Source: Elusimicrobiota bacterium | GTDB lineage: Bacteria; CG03; SLGR01; JAGXOG01 | DNA length: 64,000 bases | Reading direction: 5' to 3' | Assembly: GCA_051745145.1 (NCBI GenBank) | Contig: JBNJDT010000006.1 | Location: forward strand, 2,545 to 66,544 | Part shown: positions 3,944-34,566 of the stretch, one piece after another | Numbering within the stretch: position 1 is the first letter of the stretch | How the letters are laid out: every line of letters begins with the position of its first letter | Position numbers and translations under genes: made by a program | Notes under the pieces: model-generated | What the model was told of the DNA's origin: nothing | The model's database searches: none | What the model saw: the letters and a program-made list of their open reading frames with translations, nothing else

Positions 3944-5647
3944 TTACTGAACCATTTTGTCAATCATAAGTCTTGCTTTATTATTATCCGGATCCAGTTT
4001 TAGAACCTTTTCAAACTTTCTGGCCGCTTCCTTTAACCTTCCCCGGTGGTAGTATATATACCCCAGATTAAAATGGGCGTCTACAAGGTCGGGGTTCTGC
4101 TCCAGCGCCTTTTTATAATACTTTATTGCTCTATTTTGCTGACCTACAGTATAGTATATATTTCCCATGTTATTATACGCCCCGGTCAATGTACCGTCAA
4201 GCTCAACAGCTTTCTTGAAATTTTTTATTGCTCTCTTAAACTTTTTTTCCTTAGCCAGAATCCAGCCCAATTTATAATACGCTAAAGGATTTTCAGAATC
4301 TCTTTTAATTATTTCCCTCAATTCCTGTCTGCTGTATTCCCTGGCGGTATCAAAAAAACTTACTTTATTATCCTGCCTGCGCTTTAAAATAAGGGGCCGG
4401 ATAACTTTCTGGCTCCAGAAAACTAAAAGACCCAATATCACCAATGTAGTTACTGCTTTAATCCTATTTAGAGAAAAAGAAAATTCAGAAGCTTCTCGTT
4501 CCCAGCCTGAAACTATTCCCATCAATGTAAATACCCATATGCTGGATACGGCAAAACGCATATTGACAGAGACAGTGCTGTGAATTAATATCGCCGTCAC
4601 CCCGCAAAGCAAACTCTTGGATATATAGTCCCCCGGCTCCGTAGACTTTAAAACTGCTATATAAAAAATAACTAAAAACCATAAATACAGGCCCAGCCCA
4701 ACAATACCCGTCTCCGCGAAAATTTCAAGAAACTCATTGTGAACATAATTTACTATGAAACTGCCGGGCGGGTAAACCTTTCTTAACTCCCCGGAGGCGT
4801 ACTCCGGAAACTCAAGATGAAACTCGCCTATGCCCACTCCCGTAAACGGGTTTTCCAAACCCATCTTTACCGTATCCCGCCATATCAGCAGCCTATGGGT
4901 ATCTCTCATCCACTGGTTGCGGGAGACAAACGCAAAAATTATTATACCCAGAATAATTAAAACCGACGGCCATTTTGAAACCCTGTTTTTTCCCCATACG
5001 ATATACCATAGCAGCAGGGCTCCCATTATTCCCAGCCAGGCCCCCCGGGTGCCCGTAAAATACAGGGCAGTCACCATCGCAACGAGGGAGGCAAGCAGCC
5101 AGATTTTTTTCTTATTTTTTAAAAACAGCACCCCGGACAGGGGAATACACCCGATGAGAAAGGATCCGAAAAAATTGGGATTGCCGAAAGTAGCATGCAC
5201 CCGTCCCATTTTGGGAACTTTAAGATAACCCACCCCTCCGTATCTTTGAAGTACGCCGTAAAGCCCTATTAATCCCCCCATTATTACCAAAATTTCCAGT
5301 ATTTTTTTATCCCGGGGAAATGTTTTGTAGGCAGTAATAAAGGCCAGTAAGCTAAAAAGAATACGCTGCCACTCGCCGTAAGCCGATGGCCTATTATCGG
5401 AAACCAGATAAAAAACGGTATACAGCAAAAAAAGTGAGATGACCGGCCAGAGTAAAGTATCGGAATATATTTTTTTCAGCCGGTTAAACCGGAAAAATAT
5501 CCATCCCCCAAAGATCAACATTATGGATAAATACATTCCTGTTAACTTATAGCGGGCCAGTTTTACATCAGCTAAAAATATAAGGGAAAAAAAGAAAATA
5601 AGCCAGGATAATTTAAAGAATATCTCCCCGGTGCTATTTTTTTTCAT
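3944..5647 (-). CDS. O-antigen ligase/Wzy_C-family membrane protein with C-terminal TPR repeats
   Basis: About 12 hydrophobic segments; ATFGNPNFFG, TGTRGAW, NPFTGVGIG, YVHNEFLEIFAETG motifs; 3 TPRs (AYYKLG..., AYNNMG..., AHFNLG...). Confidence 0.85.
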   Translation of the reverse strand: MKKNSTGEIFFKLSWLIFFFSLIFLADVKLARYKLTGMYLSIMLIFGGWIFFRFNRLKKIYSDTLLWPVISLFLLYTVFYLVSDNRPSAYGEWQRILFSLLAFITAYKTFPRDKKILEILVIMGGLIGLYGVLQRYGGVGYLKVPKMGRVHATFGNPNFFGSFLIGCIPLSGVLFLKNKKKIWLLASLVAMVTALYFTGTRGAWLGIMGALLLWYIVWGKNRVSKWPSVLIILGIIIFAFVSRNQWMRDTHRLLIWRDTVKMGLENPFTGVGIGEFHLEFPEYASGELRKVYPPGSFIVNYVHNEFLEIFAETGIVGLGLYLWFLVIFYIAVLKSTEPGDYISKSLLCGVTAILIHSTVSVNMRFAVSSIWVFTLMGIVSGWEREASEFSFSLNRIKAVTTLVILGLLVFWSQKVIRPLILKRRQDNKVSFFDTAREYSRQELREIIKRDSENPLAYYKLGWILAKEKKFKRAIKNFKKAVELDGTLTGAYNNMGNIYYTVGQQNRAIKYYKKALEQNPDLVDAHFNLGYIYYHRGRLKEAARKFEKVLKLDPDNNKARLMIDKMVQ

Positions 5648-21582: not shown

Positions 21583-23259
21583 TTATTGATTTTTTTGTAT
21601 TTTAGCCCAGGTATCTTTTAAAGGCACTATACGGTTAAACACGGGATTATCTTTGCTGTAATCTTTTAAATCCGCGCTGTAATATCCCTGGCGAAAAAAC
21701 TGTACTCTTTTTCCGGGTTTAAACTTTTGGACGGCGGCCTCGGCTACAGCTCTATTGTTCACGGTCAGGGAGTTTTCATTTAAATTATCGGTATACTCCC
21801 CTCCGTCTTCTGTCTTTTCCGGATTAATAACATCGAACAACCGGTCGTAATTTCTGATTTTTATATTTACGGCCTCTTTAGCACTTACCCAGTGCAGGGT
21901 CCCCTTAACTTTGTGGCCGTCCGGATTCCACCCGCCCCTGGAATCGGGGTCGTGAGTACACCGCAGTTCCTTTATCTTTCCCGTCTTTTCATCTTTTACA
22001 ACTTCCCGGCAGGTAATATAATAGGCATGCTTGAGACGCACTTCTTTATCCGGATACAGCCGGAAAAACTTTTCATCGGGATCTTCCTGAAAATCTTCTC
22101 TTTCTATATACAATTCCTTAGTAAAAGTGACTTCTCTTTTACCCGCCGACTTATCCTCGGGATTGTTTTCCACTTCAAATTTTTCCGATTTATCTTCCGG
22201 ATAATCGGTAATTACTACTTTCACAGGATCCAGTATAACAAAAACCCTGTCCGCAGTCTTATTTAAGTTATCTCTCACGCAGTGTTCCAGTAAAGCTATA
22301 TCGACTCTGGAGTTAGCTTTGGATACACCGATTTTATCACAAAAATCTCTTATAGCCGCCGGAGGATATCCCCTTCTCCTCATACCCGATAAAGTGGGCA
22401 TCCGGGGGTCGTCCCATCCATTTACATAATTTTCATCTACAAGTTTGCTTAATTTTCTTTTACTTAACACAGTATAACTTAAATTCAATCTGGCAAATTC
22501 AATCTGGCGGGGATGGTACATTTCCAGTTTTTCAAGGAACCAGTTATACAATGGCCTGTGATCTTCAAATTCAAGGGTACACAGGGAATGAGTTATTTTT
22601 TCAATAGAATCTTCAAGACCGTGAGCCCAATCGTAAGTGGGGTATATATTCCACTCATCTTCTGTCCGGGGATGGCTTTGGTCCACAATACGGTACATAA
22701 TAGGATCCCTCATATTCAAATTCCCCGAGCCCATATCTATTTTTGCTCTTAAGACCTTCTGGCCTTCGGCGAATTTGCCGTTTTTCATATCTTTAAAAAG
22801 CTCAAGATTTTCCTGAACGCTTCTCTTTCGGTGGGGGCTGTTTTTTCCGGGCCGGGTAAGAGTTCCCCGGTATTCTCTTATCTTCTCGGGGCTTAAATCA
22901 TCCACGTAAGCATCCCCTTTTTCAATCAACTTCAGAGCGTACTCATACATTTCTTGAAAATAATCCGATGCAAAACACAACTCATCCCACTTAAACCCCA
23001 GCCATTTTACATCTTCAATTATGGAATTTATAAATTCTTCTTCCTCTTTTTCGGGATTGGTATCGTCAAATCTTAAATTACAGGTCCCCTCATAATCCCG
23101 GGCAATTGTAAAGTTAAGACATATCGATTTTGCATGTCCTATATGCAGATAGCCGTTGGGCTCGGGCGGAAAACGGGTGGCTATTCGCCCGCTGTATTTA
23201 TCTTCGCTCCGGTCCCGCTCAATTATTTCATATATAAAATTTTTATATTTAGGAGTCAT
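21583..23259 (-). CDS. glnS: Glutamine--tRNA ligase
   Basis: TRFPPEPNGYLHIGHAKSICLNF, LRFDDTNPEKE, YPTYDWAH, VLSKR, GTLHWVSA. Confidence 0.97.
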   Translation of the reverse strand: MTPKYKNFIYEIIERDRSEDKYSGRIATRFPPEPNGYLHIGHAKSICLNFTIARDYEGTCNLRFDDTNPEKEEEEFINSIIEDVKWLGFKWDELCFASDYFQEMYEYALKLIEKGDAYVDDLSPEKIREYRGTLTRPGKNSPHRKRSVQENLELFKDMKNGKFAEGQKVLRAKIDMGSGNLNMRDPIMYRIVDQSHPRTEDEWNIYPTYDWAHGLEDSIEKITHSLCTLEFEDHRPLYNWFLEKLEMYHPRQIEFARLNLSYTVLSKRKLSKLVDENYVNGWDDPRMPTLSGMRRRGYPPAAIRDFCDKIGVSKANSRVDIALLEHCVRDNLNKTADRVFVILDPVKVVITDYPEDKSEKFEVENNPEDKSAGKREVTFTKELYIEREDFQEDPDEKFFRLYPDKEVRLKHAYYITCREVVKDEKTGKIKELRCTHDPDSRGGWNPDGHKVKGTLHWVSAKEAVNIKIRNYDRLFDVINPEKTEDGGEYTDNLNENSLTVNNRAVAEAAVQKFKPGKRVQFFRQGYYSADLKDYSKDNPVFNRIVPLKDTWAKIQKNQ

Positions 23260-23283
23260 ATTTTTTTGCTTTCTATAGTTACT

Positions 23284-23616
23284 TTAATTTTCTTCATCGG
23301 ATTTTTGCCCGTCTTCTTCTTTTTTTTCTGTTTCTTTATTACTGTCTTCAATCTCATTGGCATAGGTAAGCTGCAAATTAGTGACCGTAGTACCCAGAAT
23401 GTCTTTCTCTTTTTTAGTTAAATTTCCCTCGGTTTTCTCCGAAAGCATCTGCAGCATATCAATGTAGGTTTTGGCCATATCCAGGTTTTTTTCCACTTCC
23501 CCGGTCTGAGGATTAGAAATTTTCCCCAGCCCCACAAGAGCTGTCTGAGAAAATGACATTACCATATTGGAAAATTTTTCGTCAATTTTCTCGTCTGGAT
23601 TTTTTTGTTCGTTCAT
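23284..23616 (-). CDS. DUF1844 family protein
   Basis: ALVGLGKISNP, AKTYIDMLQMLSEKTEGNLT signature. Confidence 0.85.
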   Translation of the reverse strand: MNEQKNPDEKIDEKFSNMVMSFSQTALVGLGKISNPQTGEVEKNLDMAKTYIDMLQMLSEKTEGNLTKKEKDILGTTVTNLQLTYANEIEDSNKETEKKEEDGQKSDEEN

Positions 23617-23701
23617 AATTTCCTCCTTACTATAATAATTTCTTAAGTTCTAATTAATACCTATTCTTATTTTTTGCCGTCCAGTCGTAAAACCGGTTTT
23701 A

Positions 23702-25120
23702 TTAAACTAAATTGTTAATTGTATACTCTATCCGCTCTATTACTTTTTGACGTCCTAAAATCTCCAGCATTTCAAAAGCGCCGGGGCCTTCCATCCTCCC
23801 GGAGACCGCTACTCTTACAGGATGTAATATTTTACCGGCCCCTATATCTTTCTTTTTACAATAATCTCTTAATTTATTTTCCAATTCTTTCTTTTCAAAC
23901 CGGCTTACATTTTTAAAAATTTTGAGCATATCTTCAAGTATTTCCCGGACTCCTTCTTTTTTCAATCTCTTCTCAACAGCGTCCTCTCTGTAATCAAAAT
24001 TATCTTTTATGAGAAAATTGATCCTGCCCGGAATATCACTTAATACTTCTATCTTCTTTTTTTCTGCTTTTAAAGCTCTTAACACCTTCTCTTTTTGTTC
24101 TTCCGGATTAATATCCGCCTTCTCTAACCAGGGGATAGCTTTTTCATATAACTGCTCAACGTTAAGATTTCTTATATGTTTCCCATTTATCCAGTCAAGT
24201 TTTTCCCGGTCAAAAATACCCGAAGAGGAATTACACCGTTTTATATCAAATTTTCGGATAAGTTCTTCTTCGGTAAATAACTGCTGGGAATCACTGGTTG
24301 ACCAGCCCAAAAGAGCAAGATAATTTTTAAGGGCACCGGGCAGATATCCTTCCTTTCTGTATTCCTCTAAAGAGACCGCCCCGGTACGTTTGGAAAGTTT
24401 TTTACCGTCTTCGCCGTGTACCTGGGGGAGATGGGCAAATTTTGGCAAATCAATACCCAGAGCTTCATAAATCAAAATCTGTTTGGGAGTATTTGAAATA
24501 TGATCATCTCCCCGTATAACATGGGAAATATTTAAATCGGCGTCATCTGCCACACAGGCAAAATTATAGGTGGGCATGCCATCGGATTTAAGAATAATAA
24601 AATCCGATAAAGTCCCGGAATCTATCTGGATTTCCCCTTTCACCAGATCTTTAAAAACTATATTCCGGTTTTCGGGGGTCTTTAACCGGTAGACAAAATC
24701 CCGGTCTTCTTTCTTATATTTTTCTTCATCTTCTTTAGAAAGATTCCTGCATTTACCCGAATAACCCCCGGGACCATTCTGAGACTGTTTTTCCTCTTCT
24801 AACTCTTTGGAAGTACAGTAACATTTATATACCGCATCTTTTTCAATTAATTTTTCCAGAAAATTGTAATATATTTTCTCCCGCCGGCTCTGATAGTAAG
24901 GCCCTTCGTCCGGTTCCATGCCCAGCCACTCCATTCCCGATAAAATAGCCCGGGTGTAGTTATCCCGGGACCGGTCTGTATCGGTATCTTCAATTCTCAA
25001 TATAAATTTACCCCCGCAATGCCTGGCGTAAAGATAATTGTAAAGAGCCGTGCGCACCCCCCCTATATGCAGGTATCCCGTGGGGGAAGGGGCAAACCTG
25101 ACTCGTATTTTAGTTGACAA
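23702..25120 (-). CDS. gltX: Glutamate--tRNA ligase
   Basis: RVRFAPSPTGYLHIGG, LRIEDTD, HVIRGDDH, KLSKR. Confidence 0.97.
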   Translation of the reverse strand: MSTKIRVRFAPSPTGYLHIGGVRTALYNYLYARHCGGKFILRIEDTDTDRSRDNYTRAILSGMEWLGMEPDEGPYYQSRREKIYYNFLEKLIEKDAVYKCYCTSKELEEEKQSQNGPGGYSGKCRNLSKEDEEKYKKEDRDFVYRLKTPENRNIVFKDLVKGEIQIDSGTLSDFIILKSDGMPTYNFACVADDADLNISHVIRGDDHISNTPKQILIYEALGIDLPKFAHLPQVHGEDGKKLSKRTGAVSLEEYRKEGYLPGALKNYLALLGWSTSDSQQLFTEEELIRKFDIKRCNSSSGIFDREKLDWINGKHIRNLNVEQLYEKAIPWLEKADINPEEQKEKVLRALKAEKKKIEVLSDIPGRINFLIKDNFDYREDAVEKRLKKEGVREILEDMLKIFKNVSRFEKKELENKLRDYCKKKDIGAGKILHPVRVAVSGRMEGPGAFEMLEILGRQKVIERIEYTINNLV

Positions 25121-27141: not shown

Positions 27142-27390
27142 TTATTCTTTATCTTCTTCTTCTTCGAAGTCTTCCTCTTCCAGTTTCTCTTCTTCAAGCT
27201 GGGCGGCTTTTTTATCTTTCATACTGGATATCCCTGCGGCAATAGCTACAAGTCCCACTAAAATTAAAAAAGGAGGCACCGAACCCTGAAGAACTGTTAA
27301 AAACGGTCCCCAGGCAGAACCCAATACCCCCGGCACCAGCCACAAAACTCCTATTACAACGCCAGCTAAACCAAATAAAACACTCAACAT
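27142..27390 (-). CDS. Small two-TM hypothetical protein with acidic tail
   Basis: Strong SD (AAGGAGG); two hydrophobic segments; C-terminal E/D run. Confidence 0.75.
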   Translation of the reverse strand: MLSVLFGLAGVVIGVLWLVPGVLGSAWGPFLTVLQGSVPPFLILVGLVAIAAGISSMKDKKAAQLEEEKLEEEDFEEEEDKE

Positions 27391-27447: not shown

Positions 27448-28932
27448 TTAATATATATTTCCTAAACTATTTAACAAACTTGCCGGTGAAGTAAATTTTT
27501 CACCGTAATGCCAGGCACTTATATCTCCGGCCCGGCCGTGTATCCAAACCCCCATTTTGCAACTTTCCATTAATTTAAAACCCTGTCCTATAAGCGACCC
27601 CGTTATCCCGGACAGAATATCTCCGGTACCCCCGGTGGCCATCCCCGGATTACCGGTGGAATTTACAAAAGCCATATTGCCGTCGGTTACAACAGTTCTG
27701 TATCCTTTTAATACGGTTGTACACTTATATTCCCTGGAAAAATTTTTCGCCGACTCTATTCTGTTTTCAAGTAACTTTTCTGTATTTGTATCAAGTAACC
27801 TGGCCATCTCCCCGGGATGAGGGGTTATAACCGTCGGATTCGTTCTTTTCTTTAATATTTTTTTATTGCCGGCTAAATTATTTAAGCCGTCTGCATCTAT
27901 AACCACAGGTTTTTTAATTTTCTGCAATAATTTATAAACTAAATTTCGGGTACTTTTTTCAGTTCCCATACCCGGCCCCAGAACTAACGCATCAACACCT
28001 CTTTGGTCTATAAATTTCTTTATTCTCTCAAAATTTTCTAAACTCAAAAAACCGGCCTTATCTTCCGCCAAACTCAACGACATGGCACTGAGTATATTAT
28101 TGGAAACCGAAGCTGCTAAGCTCTCTGGAATTCCCGCGGTTACCAGCCCCGCGCCGGTATTAAGTGCCCCCTTTGCCGCCATCAGCACAGCTCCGTCCAT
28201 GCCCGGTGATCCCCCGATAATTAAAACATGTCCGTAATCTTTTTTATGGGTTTTCCGGTTCCTTTTAGAAAAATAACCGTCACATTCCCTGCGGGTTATA
28301 AATTCAATATTTTCCAGATAATTATCCGGATAAATTCCAAGCCCGATATCTATATTTTCCAGACTGCCGGTATATTCACTGCCCGGGAATTTATAGTGTC
28401 CCAGTTTTGGATAGCCGAATGTAACTGTACAATCGGCCCGGACCCCGCAATTATCAGCTTCTCCGGTATTACCGTCAACCCCTGTGGGTATATCACAGGC
28501 TAAGATTATTTTACTTTTTTTATTTATTATTTCAAGAATATTTTTTAGAGGATCTCTTAGAGGCGGAGAAAAACCGGTTCCCAGCAGGCAGTCGACTACA
28601 ATCTTCTTTCGGTCTAAACTATAACTTAAATTTTCCTTATCCAGTCTTTTTACCGGTACCCTTAATTTTTCGGCCTGTTTTTTTGCCAGTCCTTTTAAAT
28701 TGCTTTTGGCAAATATCTCGACTTCCACATTGCGATTATCCAGATATCTTGCCGCAACCAGGCCGTCCCCTCCGTTATTCCCGCTGCCGCATACAAAACA
28801 TACCGGCAATTCAGGAAATTTTTCTTCAATAAAATTTGCCATCCCCCGTCCTGCACGTTCCATTAAAATTTCTGCTTTAACCGGTGAATCTTTATCTAAC
28901 CGGCTCATTTCCCGGGCGGTAATTATTTTCAT
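27448..28932 (-). CDS. nnr: Bifunctional NAD(P)HX epimerase/dehydratase
   Basis: CGSGNNGGDG, DCLLGTG, DIPTG; GPGMG, DADGLN, ITPHPGEM, LKG, GMATGGTGD. Confidence 0.95.
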   Translation of the reverse strand: MKIITAREMSRLDKDSPVKAEILMERAGRGMANFIEEKFPELPVCFVCGSGNNGGDGLVAARYLDNRNVEVEIFAKSNLKGLAKKQAEKLRVPVKRLDKENLSYSLDRKKIVVDCLLGTGFSPPLRDPLKNILEIINKKSKIILACDIPTGVDGNTGEADNCGVRADCTVTFGYPKLGHYKFPGSEYTGSLENIDIGLGIYPDNYLENIEFITRRECDGYFSKRNRKTHKKDYGHVLIIGGSPGMDGAVLMAAKGALNTGAGLVTAGIPESLAASVSNNILSAMSLSLAEDKAGFLSLENFERIKKFIDQRGVDALVLGPGMGTEKSTRNLVYKLLQKIKKPVVIDADGLNNLAGNKKILKKRTNPTVITPHPGEMARLLDTNTEKLLENRIESAKNFSREYKCTTVLKGYRTVVTDGNMAFVNSTGNPGMATGGTGDILSGITGSLIGQGFKLMESCKMGVWIHGRAGDISAWHYGEKFTSPASLLNSLGNIY

Positions 28933-29306
28933 ACTTTCTCCTTAAACACTGCAAAAGCAACAGCGTATTTGGCTTCATGGGAAATACTGACACTGTAATT
29001 TAAATTTTTTCTTTTTATTAATTCCATTATATTACTCTCCCGGGATATTTTTGGCCTGCCGGTACTGTCGTTTAGAATTTCGATATCTTTCCAAAAAAAT
29101 TTTTCGGTTTTGCTGTTAAGAGCCTTGTATACCGCTTCCTTGGCTGCAAATCTACCGGCCACGTGTATATCACTATTCTTAAATGAGTTACAGTACTCTA
29201 ATTCCCTATCAGTTAATATCTTCTCTTTAAAATTTTTCCGGTTCTTTAAAATATCAGTAATTCTTTGGACCCTTACTATATCGGTACCCGTTCTTAAAAA
29301 TGTCAT
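28929..29306 (-). CDS. acpS: Holo-ACP synthase
   Basis: GTDIV, AGRFAAKEAVYKAL, VSISHE. Confidence 0.95.
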   Translation of the reverse strand: MTFLRTGTDIVRVQRITDILKNRKNFKEKILTDRELEYCNSFKNSDIHVAGRFAAKEAVYKALNSKTEKFFWKDIEILNDSTGRPKISRESNIMELIKRKNLNYSVSISHEAKYAVAFAVFKEKV

Positions 29307-29617
29307 TTAACCTTACCGGTCTGGGGATCATATTCCCACTTTGTATTTCCGTAATCGGGGATTTTATCCAGATAATCTTTTTCAACCAGTTCCTTAAGAC
29401 TATTTGGCAGCCTGTTCTCCTTATTTTTAAAAATTTCTATTGACGTCTCCAGCATATTTATATTGGCCCGGCGGGTGATTTCGGGAATATTATTTTCGGT
29501 CTCTTTGGCAGCCGGTTTTTGAGAAGAATCAGCTTCATCATTTTTCGCTAAATACGTATAATGATATCCCCAGTAAACACCGGCAAAAATCACAAGAACT
29601 ACAAAGCCCTTTTTCAT
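29303..29617 (-). CDS. Small GspG/pseudopilin-like protein
   Basis: KG|FVVLV N-terminal TM; LPNSLKELVEKDYLDKIP...WEYDPQTG resembles a pseudopilin C-domain. Confidence 0.5.
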   Translation of the reverse strand: MKKGFVVLVIFAGVYWGYHYTYLAKNDEADSSQKPAAKETENNIPEITRRANINMLETSIEIFKNKENRLPNSLKELVEKDYLDKIPDYGNTKWEYDPQTGKVK

Positions 29618-30324
29618 TTAATTAAGTTTTTCATTTCCCTAACTGCCTTCTTTAGACCTGTAAATACGGATCGACAGACAATCGAATAGCCAATATTTAA
29701 ATCACTTATAATATCTATCCCGGCAACCGGTTTGACATTTTTGTAATTCAAGCCGTGCCCGGCATTAACTTTTAAATTCTTTTCATAAGCTAATCCGGCA
29801 CCCTTTTTTATTTCATTAAACAAGATATCTCTATCTTTTTTTACTGCGTTGGCATAACTTCCGGTATGTAATTCCACGCTATCTGCCCCTGCTTCCCGGG
29901 AAGCCTCAATCTGCTGGCTATCCGGATCAATAAACATAGATACTTCAATTCCGGACTTCTTTAAACTATCTACTGTGCTCTTTAAACTGTCCAGGTTGTT
30001 TTTTACATCCAGGCCCCCTTCAGTGGTAAGTTCTTCCCTCTTTTCGGGTACCAGGCAGACGCTTTCCGGTTTAACCTCAAGAGCGATCTGGACTATCCGG
30101 GGAGTGTCAGCCATCTCCAGATTAATGGGTAAAATATTTTCTCTTTTGAGAAGATAGACATCATCGTCCTGAATATGGCGCCGGTCTTCTCTAAGATGTA
30201 CCGTTAAATTATCCGCTCCCCCTTTTTTTACTTCTACGGCAGCTTTTAAGAGGTTGGGTATGCCTTCCTTTCTGGCTTGCCGCAAAGTAGCTACATGGTC
30301 TATATTTACTCCCAGTTTAGTCAT
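29614..30324 (-). CDS. pdxJ: Pyridoxine 5'-phosphate synthase
   Basis: LGVNIDHVATLRQAR, TVHLREDRRHI, LVPEKREELTTEGG, VELHTG, NAGHGL. Confidence 0.97.
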   Translation of the reverse strand: MTKLGVNIDHVATLRQARKEGIPNLLKAAVEVKKGGADNLTVHLREDRRHIQDDDVYLLKRENILPINLEMADTPRIVQIALEVKPESVCLVPEKREELTTEGGLDVKNNLDSLKSTVDSLKKSGIEVSMFIDPDSQQIEASREAGADSVELHTGSYANAVKKDRDILFNEIKKGAGLAYEKNLKVNAGHGLNYKNVKPVAGIDIISDLNIGYSIVCRSVFTGLKKAVREMKNLIK

Positions 30325-30404
30325 TGGACAATATACATCACATACATCCAGAGCACTACAGCAATTACCAGAGCAAGAATTTTTAACTTAAAATTTTTTT
30401 TCAT
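30321..30404 (-). CDS. Uncalled 27-aa membrane peptide MKKNFKLKILALVIAVVLWMYVMYIVQ, resembling the CdaR (YbbR) N-terminal TM helix
   Basis: Translated by hand; ATG 6 nt after the cdaA stop; its TGA overlaps the pdxJ ATG (ATGA); fills the whole intergenic gap. Confidence 0.75.
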   Translation of the reverse strand: MKKNFKLKILALVIAVVLWMYVMYIVQ

Positions 30405-30410
30405 CGGATA

Positions 30411-31208
30411 TTAATCCACCTGTACCGGTTCATCGACTACTTTCTCCCTGTAATACTCCAATAAAGTATCCTTAATTTCTTCAATTTCCAAATCTTTTTT
30501 TAAATTACCTTCTCGGGCCATGGAATATTTTCCGGATTCCTGGGAAACTATTATAACTATGGCATCGGAAACCTCTGTTAAACCCACACCTGCCCGGTGT
30601 CGGGTACCCATAACTTTAGACATCCGGTTATTGTGAGTAAGCGGTAGAATACAACCTGCCGCAACAACCCGGTCTCCGGACAGTATAACTGCCCCGTCAT
30701 GCAGCGGCGAGGGCGGGGTAAAAATTGTCTCTAACAATTCCGAAGATATTTCCGCATTTACCGTTATGCCGGTCTCTATATAATTTCTTAAACCCGTCTC
30801 CTGTTCTAATACTATTAAGGCTCCATTTCCCCGGCGGGAAATATTTTTGACGCTCTTAACTAATTCTTCTATAAACTCCACTTTTCCCCGCATTATAATG
30901 CGGGTTAGACGCCCGGATCCAAGATGAGCCAGAAAACTTCTTATCTCTGGTTGAAAAACTATTACCAGGGCTACAGCTCCGGCAACCCAGAACCACCTGA
31001 CCATCCATCCTATAAGAACTAAATTTAAAACGTCGGCAAATAAAGTAGCCACCAGAAGAAATACTATCCCCCGCAGTACCTGTACAGACCTTGTTCCGCG
31101 GATAAGGGTAAATAACTTATATATAACAAAAGCACTAATAAATATATCTAAAATGTGTCTTAAATAATTCACCCAAAAATTTTGTAAAATTGGTAAAATT
31201 TCTGTCAT
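30411..31208 (-). CDS. cdaA: Diadenylate cyclase CdaA (DacA)
   Basis: Three N-terminal TMs, VIVFQPEIR, GALIV, SPLHDGA, GTRHRAG, VSQESG. Confidence 0.95.
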   Translation of the reverse strand: MTEILPILQNFWVNYLRHILDIFISAFVIYKLFTLIRGTRSVQVLRGIVFLLVATLFADVLNLVLIGWMVRWFWVAGAVALVIVFQPEIRSFLAHLGSGRLTRIIMRGKVEFIEELVKSVKNISRRGNGALIVLEQETGLRNYIETGITVNAEISSELLETIFTPPSPLHDGAVILSGDRVVAAGCILPLTHNNRMSKVMGTRHRAGVGLTEVSDAIVIIVSQESGKYSMAREGNLKKDLEIEEIKDTLLEYYREKVVDEPVQVD

Positions 31209-32026
31209 ATTCTTTCCCTATTTAAAGCTTTAACCACTTCCAGCGCCTGTTTAGTCTCTTTTACATCGTGTACCCTGAGAACCGATATATCCAAAAAAGC
31301 AGACCAGCAGGATACTGCCAGAGAACCGCTCAATCTCTGATTCGGGGGTAAATCCAAAAGATCCTTTAAAAAAGATTTCCGGGACGCTCCCAGTAAGACC
31401 GGATACTCATCGCTCAGTTTGTCAATATTAGCTATTATTTTAAGGTTGTGTTTTAAAGTTTTGCCAAAACCTATTCCGGGATCTATCAAAATATTATCTT
31501 TATCTACGCCTTCTTCCAAACATTTATCGGCATTTTTATGAAGAAAGTTACGGATATCAGTTAACAGATCTTTATACTGTGGGCTATCCTGCATATTCTC
31601 TGGATTACCCTGCATATGCATAATACATATGGCGGGATTATATTCTGCAACTGTTTTTCGCATTTTTGGATTTCTAAAGCCGGCTACATTATTTATCATA
31701 TCCACTCCCCTCTCTAAAACCTCCCGGGCAACTTTTGGGCTGGTAGTATCACAGGAAATTTTTATATCCGGAAAAGAGTCTTTTAATTTTTCTATTACAG
31801 GTAATACTCTGCTCATCTCTTCTCCCGCTGAAATACTTTTCGACCCGGGACGGGTTGATTCCCCGCCTATATCTATGATATCCGCCCCATCTTCATTTAA
31901 TTTCAAAGCCCTCTGGAATGCTTTTTCCGGATCGTTATATTTACCCCCGTCGTAAAATGAATCCGGAGTAATGTTTAATACCCCCATTATAGAAGGCGAC
32001 TTATAAAATAAATCTTCTATTTTCAT
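31205..32026 (-). CDS. folP: Dihydropteroate synthase
   Basis: MGVLNITPDSFYDGG, DIGGESTRPG, DPGIGFGK, GASRKSF, RVHDV. Confidence 0.97.
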   Translation of the reverse strand: MKIEDLFYKSPSIMGVLNITPDSFYDGGKYNDPEKAFQRALKLNEDGADIIDIGGESTRPGSKSISAGEEMSRVLPVIEKLKDSFPDIKISCDTTSPKVAREVLERGVDMINNVAGFRNPKMRKTVAEYNPAICIMHMQGNPENMQDSPQYKDLLTDIRNFLHKNADKCLEEGVDKDNILIDPGIGFGKTLKHNLKIIANIDKLSDEYPVLLGASRKSFLKDLLDLPPNQRLSGSLAVSCWSAFLDISVLRVHDVKETKQALEVVKALNRERI

Positions 32027-32027
32027 C

Positions 32028-32591
32028 TTATTTATTTTCGTTAATTAAAGACAAAGCTTCGCTTCTGGTCCGGGCGTCTTTTAAAAATATTCCCTTCATA
32101 GCTGAAGTTACAACTTTAGAACCGGCTTTTTTTATTCCTCTCATAACCATGCAAAGATGCTGGGCTTCAATTATAACCATCGCTCCCCTGGGCTTTATAT
32201 TTTCCATCATCGATTCTGCTATAGTTTCAGTAAGTCTCTCCTGCAGCTGAAGTTTTTTAGAGACTGCTTCAACCAATCGGGCAATTTTTGATAACCCGGT
32301 TACATTGCCATCTTTTGGAATATAAGCCACATGTGCTTTACCTACAAAAGGAAGAAGATGGTGTTCACAAACAGAATGAAAAGATATATCTTTAACTAAA
32401 ATTATTTCCGAATATCCCTCTTCTTTAAAATAGACCGGCGGGGCCTTAGGAGACTCATCATACGCACTGAATATTTCAGTACACATTCTGGCCACCCTAT
32501 CCGGGGTTTCCTTTAAGCCGGGTCTGGACGGATCTTCGCCGATACCTTCCAGGAAATTTCTAACTGCTTTCTTTATCTTTTTCTTGTTCAT
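32028..32591 (-). CDS. folE: GTP cyclohydrolase I
   Basis: [37 protein letters not shown]. Confidence 0.97.
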
Positions 32592-34566
32592 TGGAATTAT
32601 CTTTTACCTGTGCTTCCTTTTTTTTCTCCTTATTTTTACCTTTCTCTGCCTTTTCACTCTTATCAGTACTGTTCTTTTTATCTTTAGATTTTTTATTTTT
32701 ATCTGACTTTTCTCTATCGGATTTTTCTTCTTTTTCTTCCTTGTTATTGTCAGGGGCCAAACCCACTATTCTTTTAAGTTCATCGGATTCAATTATCTCT
32801 TTCTCTATCAGTTCTTCGGCCAACTTACGCAAACTGTCCTGATTATCGGTTAAAATTTTCCGCGCCTTTTTAAGACATTTATCAATTATATTTTTTACCC
32901 CTTTGTCAATTAGCTGGGCTGTCTCCTCGGAATATTCTCTGCCCTGGGCCAAATCCTTACCCAAAAAGACTTTCTCCTTGTCTTTATCGTATGTCAAAGG
33001 CCCCAATTCATCACTCATACCGTATTCGGTGACTAATTTATAGGCCATTTCGGTAACCTGCCGGAGATCATTCTGGGCCCCTGTTGTCTTTTCATTGAAT
33101 ATTAACTGCTCTGCAATCCTCCCTCCCAGCATTACAGTCATCTTATCAGTTATCTCGACTTCGGAGGTAAGATGCTTATCTTCCAGGGGAAGTTGCAGGG
33201 TATACCCTAAAGCCGGGCCTCTAGAAAGTATGGAAACTTTATGGACCGGATCCGCATTTTCCAGATGTAAAGCTACTAAAGCGTGACCGGCTTCGTGATA
33301 GGCTATTTTTTCTTTTTCTTCATCAGAGATTACTCTGGATTTTTTCTGAGGACCGGCAATAACTCTGTCTATAGCTTCTTCAATATGGTGCATCGTGACC
33401 TTATCGGCTTCTTCTCTCCCGGCCAGCAGGGCACCTTCATTTATTATATTTGCTATATCACTGCCCACAAACCCCGGAGTTCTTCTTGAAAGGACATCAT
33501 AATCAATATCATCATCCATTTTCACATCTTTTGCATGGAGCTGAAATATTTCCTTGCGTTCATTTATATTGGGGCGGGGTACTCCTATATGCCGGTCAAA
33601 CCTGCCTTTTCTCAAGAGAGCGGAATCTAAAACATCCGGACGATTTGTAGCTCCTATGAGTATAACTCCTTCTCTTGAATCAAACCCGTCCAGTTCTTTT
33701 AATATCTGGTTAAGGGTCTGTTCCCTTTCATCATGTCCGCCGCCCAGTCCGGAAAAACGGGATCTGCCTACAGCATCCAGTTCATCAATAAATATTATAC
33801 AGGGGGAATTTTTGCGCCCTCTTTCAAAAAGGTCTCTTATCCGGGATGCCCCGACTCCCACAAACATCTCTACAAATTCACTTCCGGAAGCTGAAAAGAA
33901 CGGTACATCCGCCTCGCCGGCTATAGCTTTTGTAAGAAGAGTTTTACCGGTGCCCGGCGCTCCATAGAGTAAAACTCCTTTAGGTATATCGGCTCCCAGA
34001 CGGGTAAATTTTTTAGGATTTCTTAAATACTCGACTATCTCCTGCAGTTCTTCTTTAATCTCTTCCAGGCCGGCAACGTTGTCAAACGTTATATTTTTTT
34101 CTTTCTTTTTTACATGCATTTTGGCCTTGGATTTTCCGAATTTCAAAGCGTTTTTGCCGCCGGAACGCATCTGATTCATTATTACAATCCAGATAACTAT
34201 CAATAGAAGAATGGGCCCGAAATTAAACAGGGCCATCTGCAGCCAGCCGCTGGATATGTCTCCTTTAAATTCCACTCCCGCTTCCCGCAGATCTTTTACA
34301 AGTTCGGTATCCTCTACTACAGTTGTTTTAAACTGTACTTCTTCTCCGGTAGTAGAAGATAAAAAAGTACCGGTAATTTCCTCTTCAGAAATTTCAACCT
34401 GCTGCAGCCTGCCCGCATCCAGTTTGTCTCTAAACTCACTGTAAGCTATCTCTTCTACTTCTTTTTGATTGCCCAGGTATCCGGTTAATAAAATAGCTCC
34501 CAGTATTAAAACTATCCAGAACGAAAACCCTTTAAAAAATTCTTGTTTCTTTTTATTTTTACTCAT
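32560..34566 (-). CDS. ftsH: ATP-dependent zinc metalloprotease FtsH
   Basis: Two TMs, [33 protein letters not shown]. Confidence 0.98.

Follow-up and report, generated by a model that had tools for sequence, protein, structure and literature searches.

The window, a stretch of 64,000 nucleotides from an Elusimicrobiota bacterium, carries a housekeeping operon on its minus strand, in which tilS, hpt, ftsH, folE, folP, cdaA, a 27-codon open reading frame, pdxJ, a gene for a 104-aa membrane protein, acpS, nnr, and others follow one another. Most of the neighbouring genes are joined by 4-nt overlaps. The short frame, hereafter mini-cdaR, and the features around it are as follows.

31205..32026, minus strand: folP (PF00809, 2.5e-79), with a 4-nt overlap with the start of cdaA
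30411..31208, minus strand: cdaA (Pfam PF02457 (DAC), 2.4e-41; PF19293 (CdaA_N), 2.9e-11)
30405..30420, minus strand: cdaA/mini-cdaR junction, with the last cdaA codons, the TAA, and a 6-nt spacer, as read from the sequence
30321..30404, minus strand: mini-cdaR, ATG, 27 codons, and TGA; predicted peptide MKKNFKLKILALVIAVVLWMYVMYIVQ
29614..30324, minus strand: pdxJ (PF03740, 3.9e-95, 318 bits; NF003625, 334 bits)
29303-29617, minus strand: gene for a 104-aa single-pass pilin-like protein, between pdxJ and acpS, with 4-nt overlaps
28929-29306, minus strand: acpS, downstream in the operon, with a 4-nt overlap

The cdaA product scores 246.8 bits against TIGR00159 (cutoff 188.8) and is unambiguously a CdaA-type diadenylate cyclase, with three N-terminal transmembrane helices and a DAC domain that holds the DGA and RHR motifs. 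We presume that this cyclase is the partner of the mini-cdaR peptide. A 6-nt spacer, TATCCG, separates the TAA of cdaA (30411-30413) from the ATG of mini-cdaR, and we infer that the Shine-Dalgarno-like GGTGGA at 30415-30420, inside the last cdaA codons, is the ribosome-binding site for mini-cdaR. At the other end, the TGA of mini-cdaR (30323..30321) and the ATG of pdxJ (30324..30322) share three bases, as ATGA. An earlier note, made from the letters of this DNA, had placed the frame 6 nt after cdaA with its stop overlapping the pdxJ start, and the coordinates bear this out. No Shine-Dalgarno-like sequence was seen upstream of pdxJ; this and the ATGA overlap suggest that pdxJ is probably translated via coupling to the mini-cdaR frame. 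In a promoter and terminator scan, the region between cdaA and pdxJ had neither a terminator-like site nor an informative promoter match, and an Rfam scan of the window covering c-di-AMP riboswitches and rRNA returned three tRNAs only.

The other members of the operon have features of their own. The 104-aa gene is kept at the same place in 8 loci, all of the close clade. Its product has an N-terminal hydrophobic helix (MKKGFVVLVIFAGVYWGY...) and a pseudopilin-like C-terminal part (type II secretion/competence), with a weak ComGC match (E 0.017) and without the canonical prepilin motif. The idea that this protein is a detached CdaR ectodomain was rejected, since neither of the two CdaR HMMs described below matches it and it is pilin-like instead. 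Between nnr and tsaE, an 82-aa ORF (27142-27390, minus strand) encodes a protein with two hydrophobic stretches and a tail that is strongly acidic (...EEEKLEEEDFEEEEDKE), and a MamI-family 72-aa gene is found at a similar place in one related locus (L090). The 3' end of ftsH (32560-32760, minus strand) encodes a C-terminal Lys/Glu/Ser-rich low-complexity extension of ~65 residues, and the listed ORFs of ftsH and folE share 32 nt. Two nearby class I Glu/Gln-type tRNA synthetase genes lie at 21583-25120 on the same strand, one with GlnRS-type C-terminal domains and the other with a GluRS-type anticodon domain.

The mini-cdaR peptide has a Lys-rich N-terminus with a net charge of +4, followed by one transmembrane helix. 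From this charge, the N-terminus is predicted to be cytoplasmic (N-in, single-pass), and the peptide ends at the outer membrane face, 8 residues past the helix Trp. The length of the frame should be noted: translation of the window in six frames yields 1711 stop-to-stop pieces that are 20 aa or longer, and an open frame of 27 codons is no more than chance. Length alone is thus uninformative, and what makes the frame significant is its homology and conservation. The antisense ORFs that cover these bases have stops in at least 6 of 11 orthologs and were rejected as artefacts.

The homology was examined with an HMM of the CdaR N-terminus, built from the first 27 residues of full-length CdaR proteins; the 26 proteins used are encoded beside cdaA in unrelated loci, and the short-ORF clade contributed none of them. 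Across the six frames of the window, mini-cdaR is the sole match of this HMM (29.4 bits, E 4.7e-8; the next E is 0.46), and 94 strongly hydrophobic 27-mers of the window, taken as a hydrophobicity control, reach at most 5.6 bits. The CdaR helix pattern given in the earlier note is real: numbered from the helix Trp, the positions conserved among 25 full-length N-termini are K-11, S/A-8, A-4, L-1, W0, Y+2, and V+3. The mini-cdaR peptide carries all seven of them. With a spacing of four residues, the small residues (-8 and -4) and the Trp (0) lie along one side of the helix. Full-length CdaR exits the membrane with (N/D)P at +8/+9, whereas the short peptides stop at ~+8. These profile scores give solid statistical support to homology with the CdaR transmembrane helix, and mini-cdaR is, with high probability, a real gene descended from CdaR.

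A second HMM, built from 22 complete CdaR proteins, aligns to mini-cdaR at profile positions 4-29 only. With this HMM, no YbbR-domain sequence was found in the six frames of the window (64 kb) or in related loci totalling 98.6 kb; in the latter, the short ORFs are its only matches, and control loci with a real CdaR give E ≤ 1e-63. Neither Pfam nor NCBIfam gives a match to the peptide, PF07949 (YbbR) included, and the Pfam tables of nine further loci (4.1-20.8 kb each) contain no YbbR family. The earlier description of the peptide as a membrane helix that has lost its sensor agrees with these results.

A full-length CdaR could be encoded elsewhere in the genome, and the peptide would then be a decoy that occupies the CdaR site of CdaA and uncouples the cyclase from that protein. 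It is known that cdaR can be unlinked from the cyclase gene, as in P. gingivalis (PMC9259658), and the search covered the 64 kb of the window and, for each relative, no more than 21 kb, reaching up to 10 kb to either side of the gene. However, YbbR sequence is absent from the window, from the 98.6 kb of related loci, and from the Pfam tables of the nine further loci, and the tight coupling to cdaA implies constant co-production, not regulated competition. We consider such a decoy unlikely.

In every relative examined, with CdaA 45-87% identical, an ORF of 26-48 aa lies directly 3' of cdaA. These loci give ~30 distinct short peptides from genomes with a GC content of 33-66%, and three different genes come next, namely pdxJ, glmM, or a polysaccharide deacetylase gene. 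The conserved short ORF after cdaA that the first reading of this DNA proposed to look for is thus present in the relatives, none of which has a full-length cdaR at this place. That reading had also taken the frame for a complete coupled ORF and not a broken gene end, as the intact frame and its conservation in relatives confirm.

A genome scan with CdaA gave five close relatives (L001-L005, CdaA 70-87% identical), all with an ORF of 26-28 aa between cdaA and pdxJ. They are labelled as Elusimicrobia, Elusimicrobiota, or Sumerlaeota MAGs, and several come from soda-lake/hypersaline samples. A metagenome scan added short-ORF loci in the range L008-L013 and L037. The short ORF is followed by pdxJ in L009/L010, L011, and L013, and it is also present in the more distant L012 and L037 (CdaA 45-49% identical). 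In L015-L017, an ORF of 32-33 aa lies between cdaA and glmM, with pdxJ after glmM; the peptides of this subgroup are weak against the CdaR HMM (4-8 bits), so that their assignment rests on position and motif. In L088-L093 (CdaA 47-54% identical), cdaA is separated from glmM or pdxJ by ORFs of 31-47 aa, and three of these contigs are named Elusimicrobiota, Elusimicrobia, or Endomicrobiales in NCBI. The distant contigs show the order tilS-hpt-ftsH-(folE)-folP-cdaA, an ORF of 36-47 aa, and glmM-pdxJ, followed by glmS in four of five (L088-L091); one distant contig has a 31-aa ORF after cdaA and then pdxJ. The string tilS-hpt-ftsH-folE-folP-cdaA of the window is also found in L088, L090, L091, L092, and L093.

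A reciprocal search was performed with a profile of 20 short peptides against 5.8 billion proteins. It gave 15 matches at E ≤ 1e-3, all of 29-48 aa. Two of the matches were picked on sequence alone, and both are encoded directly after a DAC gene, with glmM or a polysaccharide deacetylase gene next. Since the next gene varies among the DAC-linked peptides, the link is to cdaA and not to the following gene.

Some individual loci should be noted. In L094/L095 (4171-5096), which belong to another lineage, a 31-aa peptide follows a 277-aa DAC protein without a CdaA_N Pfam match on record, and a polysaccharide deacetylase and a GDPD phosphodiesterase come next, which makes another envelope-related neighbourhood. 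L012 has ~240 nt of short tandem-like repeats (CCATTCGCTATTCGC-type) at ~4580-4820, between the short ORF and pdxJ; in no other locus does the next gene lie so far (~300 nt) from the peptide ORF. In L051 (4773-5996), cdaR is found in two adjacent pieces, representing an interrupted gene or an assembly error. In L039 (4093-4602), a complete 145-aa ORF after cdaA gives a weak match to the CdaR profile (E 6.8e-7) and may be a one-domain form.

Among the 11 close orthologs, only the mini-cdaR frame is open in all; every one of the five other frames is interrupted by stops in 5 or more of them. The mean pS is 0.76, with synonymous sites saturated, against a pN of 0.33, and pairwise differences at the three codon positions are 0.45/0.23/0.61. 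By these measures, the mini-cdaR frame is under purifying selection. The start of the short ORF overlaps the cdaA stop (ATGA or TTGA) in 7 of the 11 orthologs, and its end overlaps the pdxJ start in 7 of the 11.

With the operon chained by 4-nt overlaps, the short frame might be a translational relay, which ribosomes cross to reinitiate on pdxJ, and the peptide would then be functionless. The lack of an obvious Shine-Dalgarno sequence for pdxJ, whose ATG lies on the mini-cdaR stop, and the recurrence of this overlap in 7 of 11 orthologs favor such a relay. The amino acids are, however, conserved beyond what an open frame needs (pN 0.33 versus a saturated pS of 0.76), and the conserved positions are the same as in full-length CdaR. 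The peptide also persists where the next gene is ~300 nt (L012), 13 nt (L003), or ~100 nt (L094, a polysaccharide deacetylase gene) away, or is glmM. A relay may coexist with a function of the peptide, yet it leaves the motif unexplained, and a peptide that serves as a relay and nothing else seems improbable to us.

Expression was examined in salt-lake metatranscriptomes, four runs of which hold the region at ≥99% identity. One contig (30287-31203) spans cdaA, mini-cdaR, and the pdxJ start, and a second contig (29957-30480) has zero mismatches. The contigs fit the placement of cdaA, mini-cdaR, and pdxJ on one transcript, but they are unstranded and may include DNA carry-over. With its conservation, selection, transcript contigs, and one predicted helix, mini-cdaR is a candidate for a translated small membrane protein of fewer than 50 aa.

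The match of mini-cdaR to only the first ~25 CdaR positions could also come from the decaying stump of a recent cdaR deletion, that is, a functionless pseudogene. Broken cdaR genes are known, since cdaR is split in L051 and is a pseudogene in L. lactis MG1363 (PMC10117814). Against this stand the presence of the short form in every examined relative, over CdaA identities from 87% to ~45% and GC contents of 33-66%, the conserved length, the intact frame, the coupled starts and stops, and the saturated synonymous sites. No YbbR-coding debris is found downstream in any locus. Moreover, the CdaR-less sister lineages have nothing at this place, with obg 8-9 nt after cdaA (L018-L023), and this empty slot suggests that useless stumps do get removed. 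A decaying stump is therefore highly improbable.

The distribution of the forms was compared with a CdaA tree (neighbour-joining, without support values). In this tree, all short-ORF loci fall in one clade. The neighbour clade is without CdaR, cdaA there being usually followed by obg as in L018-L023. The clades with full-length CdaR lie separately from both. The order cdaA - short ORF - glmM - pdxJ is seen in L015-L017, L088-L092, and L096, and looks like the Firmicutes-like cdaA-cdaR-glmM module with a shrunken cdaR; the clade of the window has no glmM at the position after the short ORF. The common order suggests that an ancestral cdaA-cdaR-glmM module was kept while cdaR shrank, as far as gene order can tell, and that the halophilic subclade of the window then lost glmM here, bringing pdxJ beside the peptide. 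One old truncation of cdaR is the simplest reading. Judged from the loci compared, the helix-only CdaR is an old, lineage-wide state of Elusimicrobiota-type MAGs and not a peculiarity of this genome.

In public records, the versions of 39-45 aa in relatives are called as genes without Pfam matches, and those of 31, 36, and 47 aa are uncalled. JGI calls three orthologs of 32-48 aa (P0122, P0128, and P0132) a "YbbR domain-containing protein", though they are too short to hold a YbbR domain; the name looks like a carry-over from a match to the N-terminal helix. Mini-cdaR should not be filed as a YbbR-domain protein. In the literature on cdaA/CdaR and small proteins, no description of a helix-only CdaR was found among the matches listed. 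Such genes, when called, end up hypothetical or mislabelled, and their sizes are often below the limits of gene callers.

The cdaA-cdaR-glmM module belongs to Firmicutes, and CdaR/YbbR proteins also occur in Borrelia, Chlamydia, and Bacteroidota. Mini-cdaR resembles CdaR in occupying the same slot after cdaA on the same strand, with glmM next in most relatives, in having the same predicted N-in single-pass topology, and in carrying the helix motif K-x2-[SA]-x3-A-x2-LW-x-YV. The part that it keeps is the one for which binding to CdaA has been reported (PMC10243994, PMC8573169). Contrarily, mini-cdaR has no YbbR domain (PF07949), whereas the full-length CdaR proteins in the comparison loci have 309-448 aa with three or four domains, and the members of its family, at 26-48 aa, are without the extracytoplasmic sensor.

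MgrB-PhoQ, KdpF-KdpABC, AcrZ-AcrB, and MgtS-MgtA are pairs in which a small single-pass membrane protein binds and tunes a larger membrane protein. Mini-cdaR is like these small proteins in having fewer than 50 aa and one helix and in being encoded beside (or co-regulated with) its presumed target, on which, by analogy, it would act by helix-helix contact. No derivation of MgrB, KdpF, AcrZ, or MgtS from a multidomain regulator by truncation is known; unlike them, mini-cdaR has an ancestry traceable to CdaR, and a second-messenger cyclase is its presumed target. Some streptococci have natural CdaA-CdaR fusions, and AlphaFold models put the CdaR helix against the first CdaA helix (PMC10243994). 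In such fusions the CdaR transmembrane domain works at a fixed 1:1 ratio beside the CdaA membrane domain, to which the arrangement proposed for mini-cdaR is similar. The fusions, however, keep the YbbR domains in one polypeptide, whereas mini-cdaR is a separate, coupled predicted peptide without a sensor.

We regard it as likely that mini-cdaR is CdaR reduced to its transmembrane helix and that it is a coupled membrane partner of the cyclase. According to PMC10243994, PMC8573169, and PMC8316131, the contact between full-length CdaR and CdaA is made by their transmembrane domains. The position of mini-cdaR, its predicted translational coupling, and, by analogy, these published contacts lead us to infer that the peptide may be a regulator of the diadenylate cyclase. 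The predicted peptide would be made in step with CdaA through translational coupling, in a roughly stoichiometric amount. It would insert N-in and pack on the three-helix membrane domain of CdaA via the conserved side of its helix, and could thereby set or stabilise the membrane-domain arrangement on which CdaA oligomerisation and c-di-AMP output depend. Lacking an ectodomain, the peptide would report no signal from the cell wall or periplasm; any signal that it passes would come from the membrane itself, or the peptide would be a constitutive subunit. Comparison of CdaA membrane-domain conservation among short-ORF, full-length-CdaR, and no-CdaR lineages gave no discriminating pattern for a CdaR-binding surface.

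Binding of the peptide to CdaA is somewhat favored, and the chances that it changes c-di-AMP output appear evenly balanced. The effects reported for full-length CdaR are contradictory, with activation in B. subtilis and inhibition in Listeria and S. aureus (PMC10117814), so that the sign of any effect of the peptide is unpredictable.

In this lineage, all YbbR domains have been discarded while the helix is under selection. This amounts to a natural deletion experiment, which speaks for an independent function of the helix; the conserved short form suggests that it is through the helix that CdaR acts on the cyclase. The family also provides a reagent of 27-48 aa for testing the function of the helix, and it indicates that the cdaA-cdaR-glmM module reaches, in reduced form, a phylum far from Firmicutes. 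A bolder reading, which we offer tentatively and hold to be rather doubtful, is that in the sampled lineage CdaR shrank, probably in a single ancient event, to a helix of ~30 residues, and that the cyclase still requires this helix to function properly. If this is true, the transmembrane helix, and not the YbbR array, would be the working core of CdaR; it would join the three membrane helices of CdaA as a fourth and set the oligomeric state of the cyclase. The lineage would then be a natural minimal system for how CdaR controls CdaA, and what its c-di-AMP synthesis responds to would possibly be membrane tension or lipid packing and not the cell wall.
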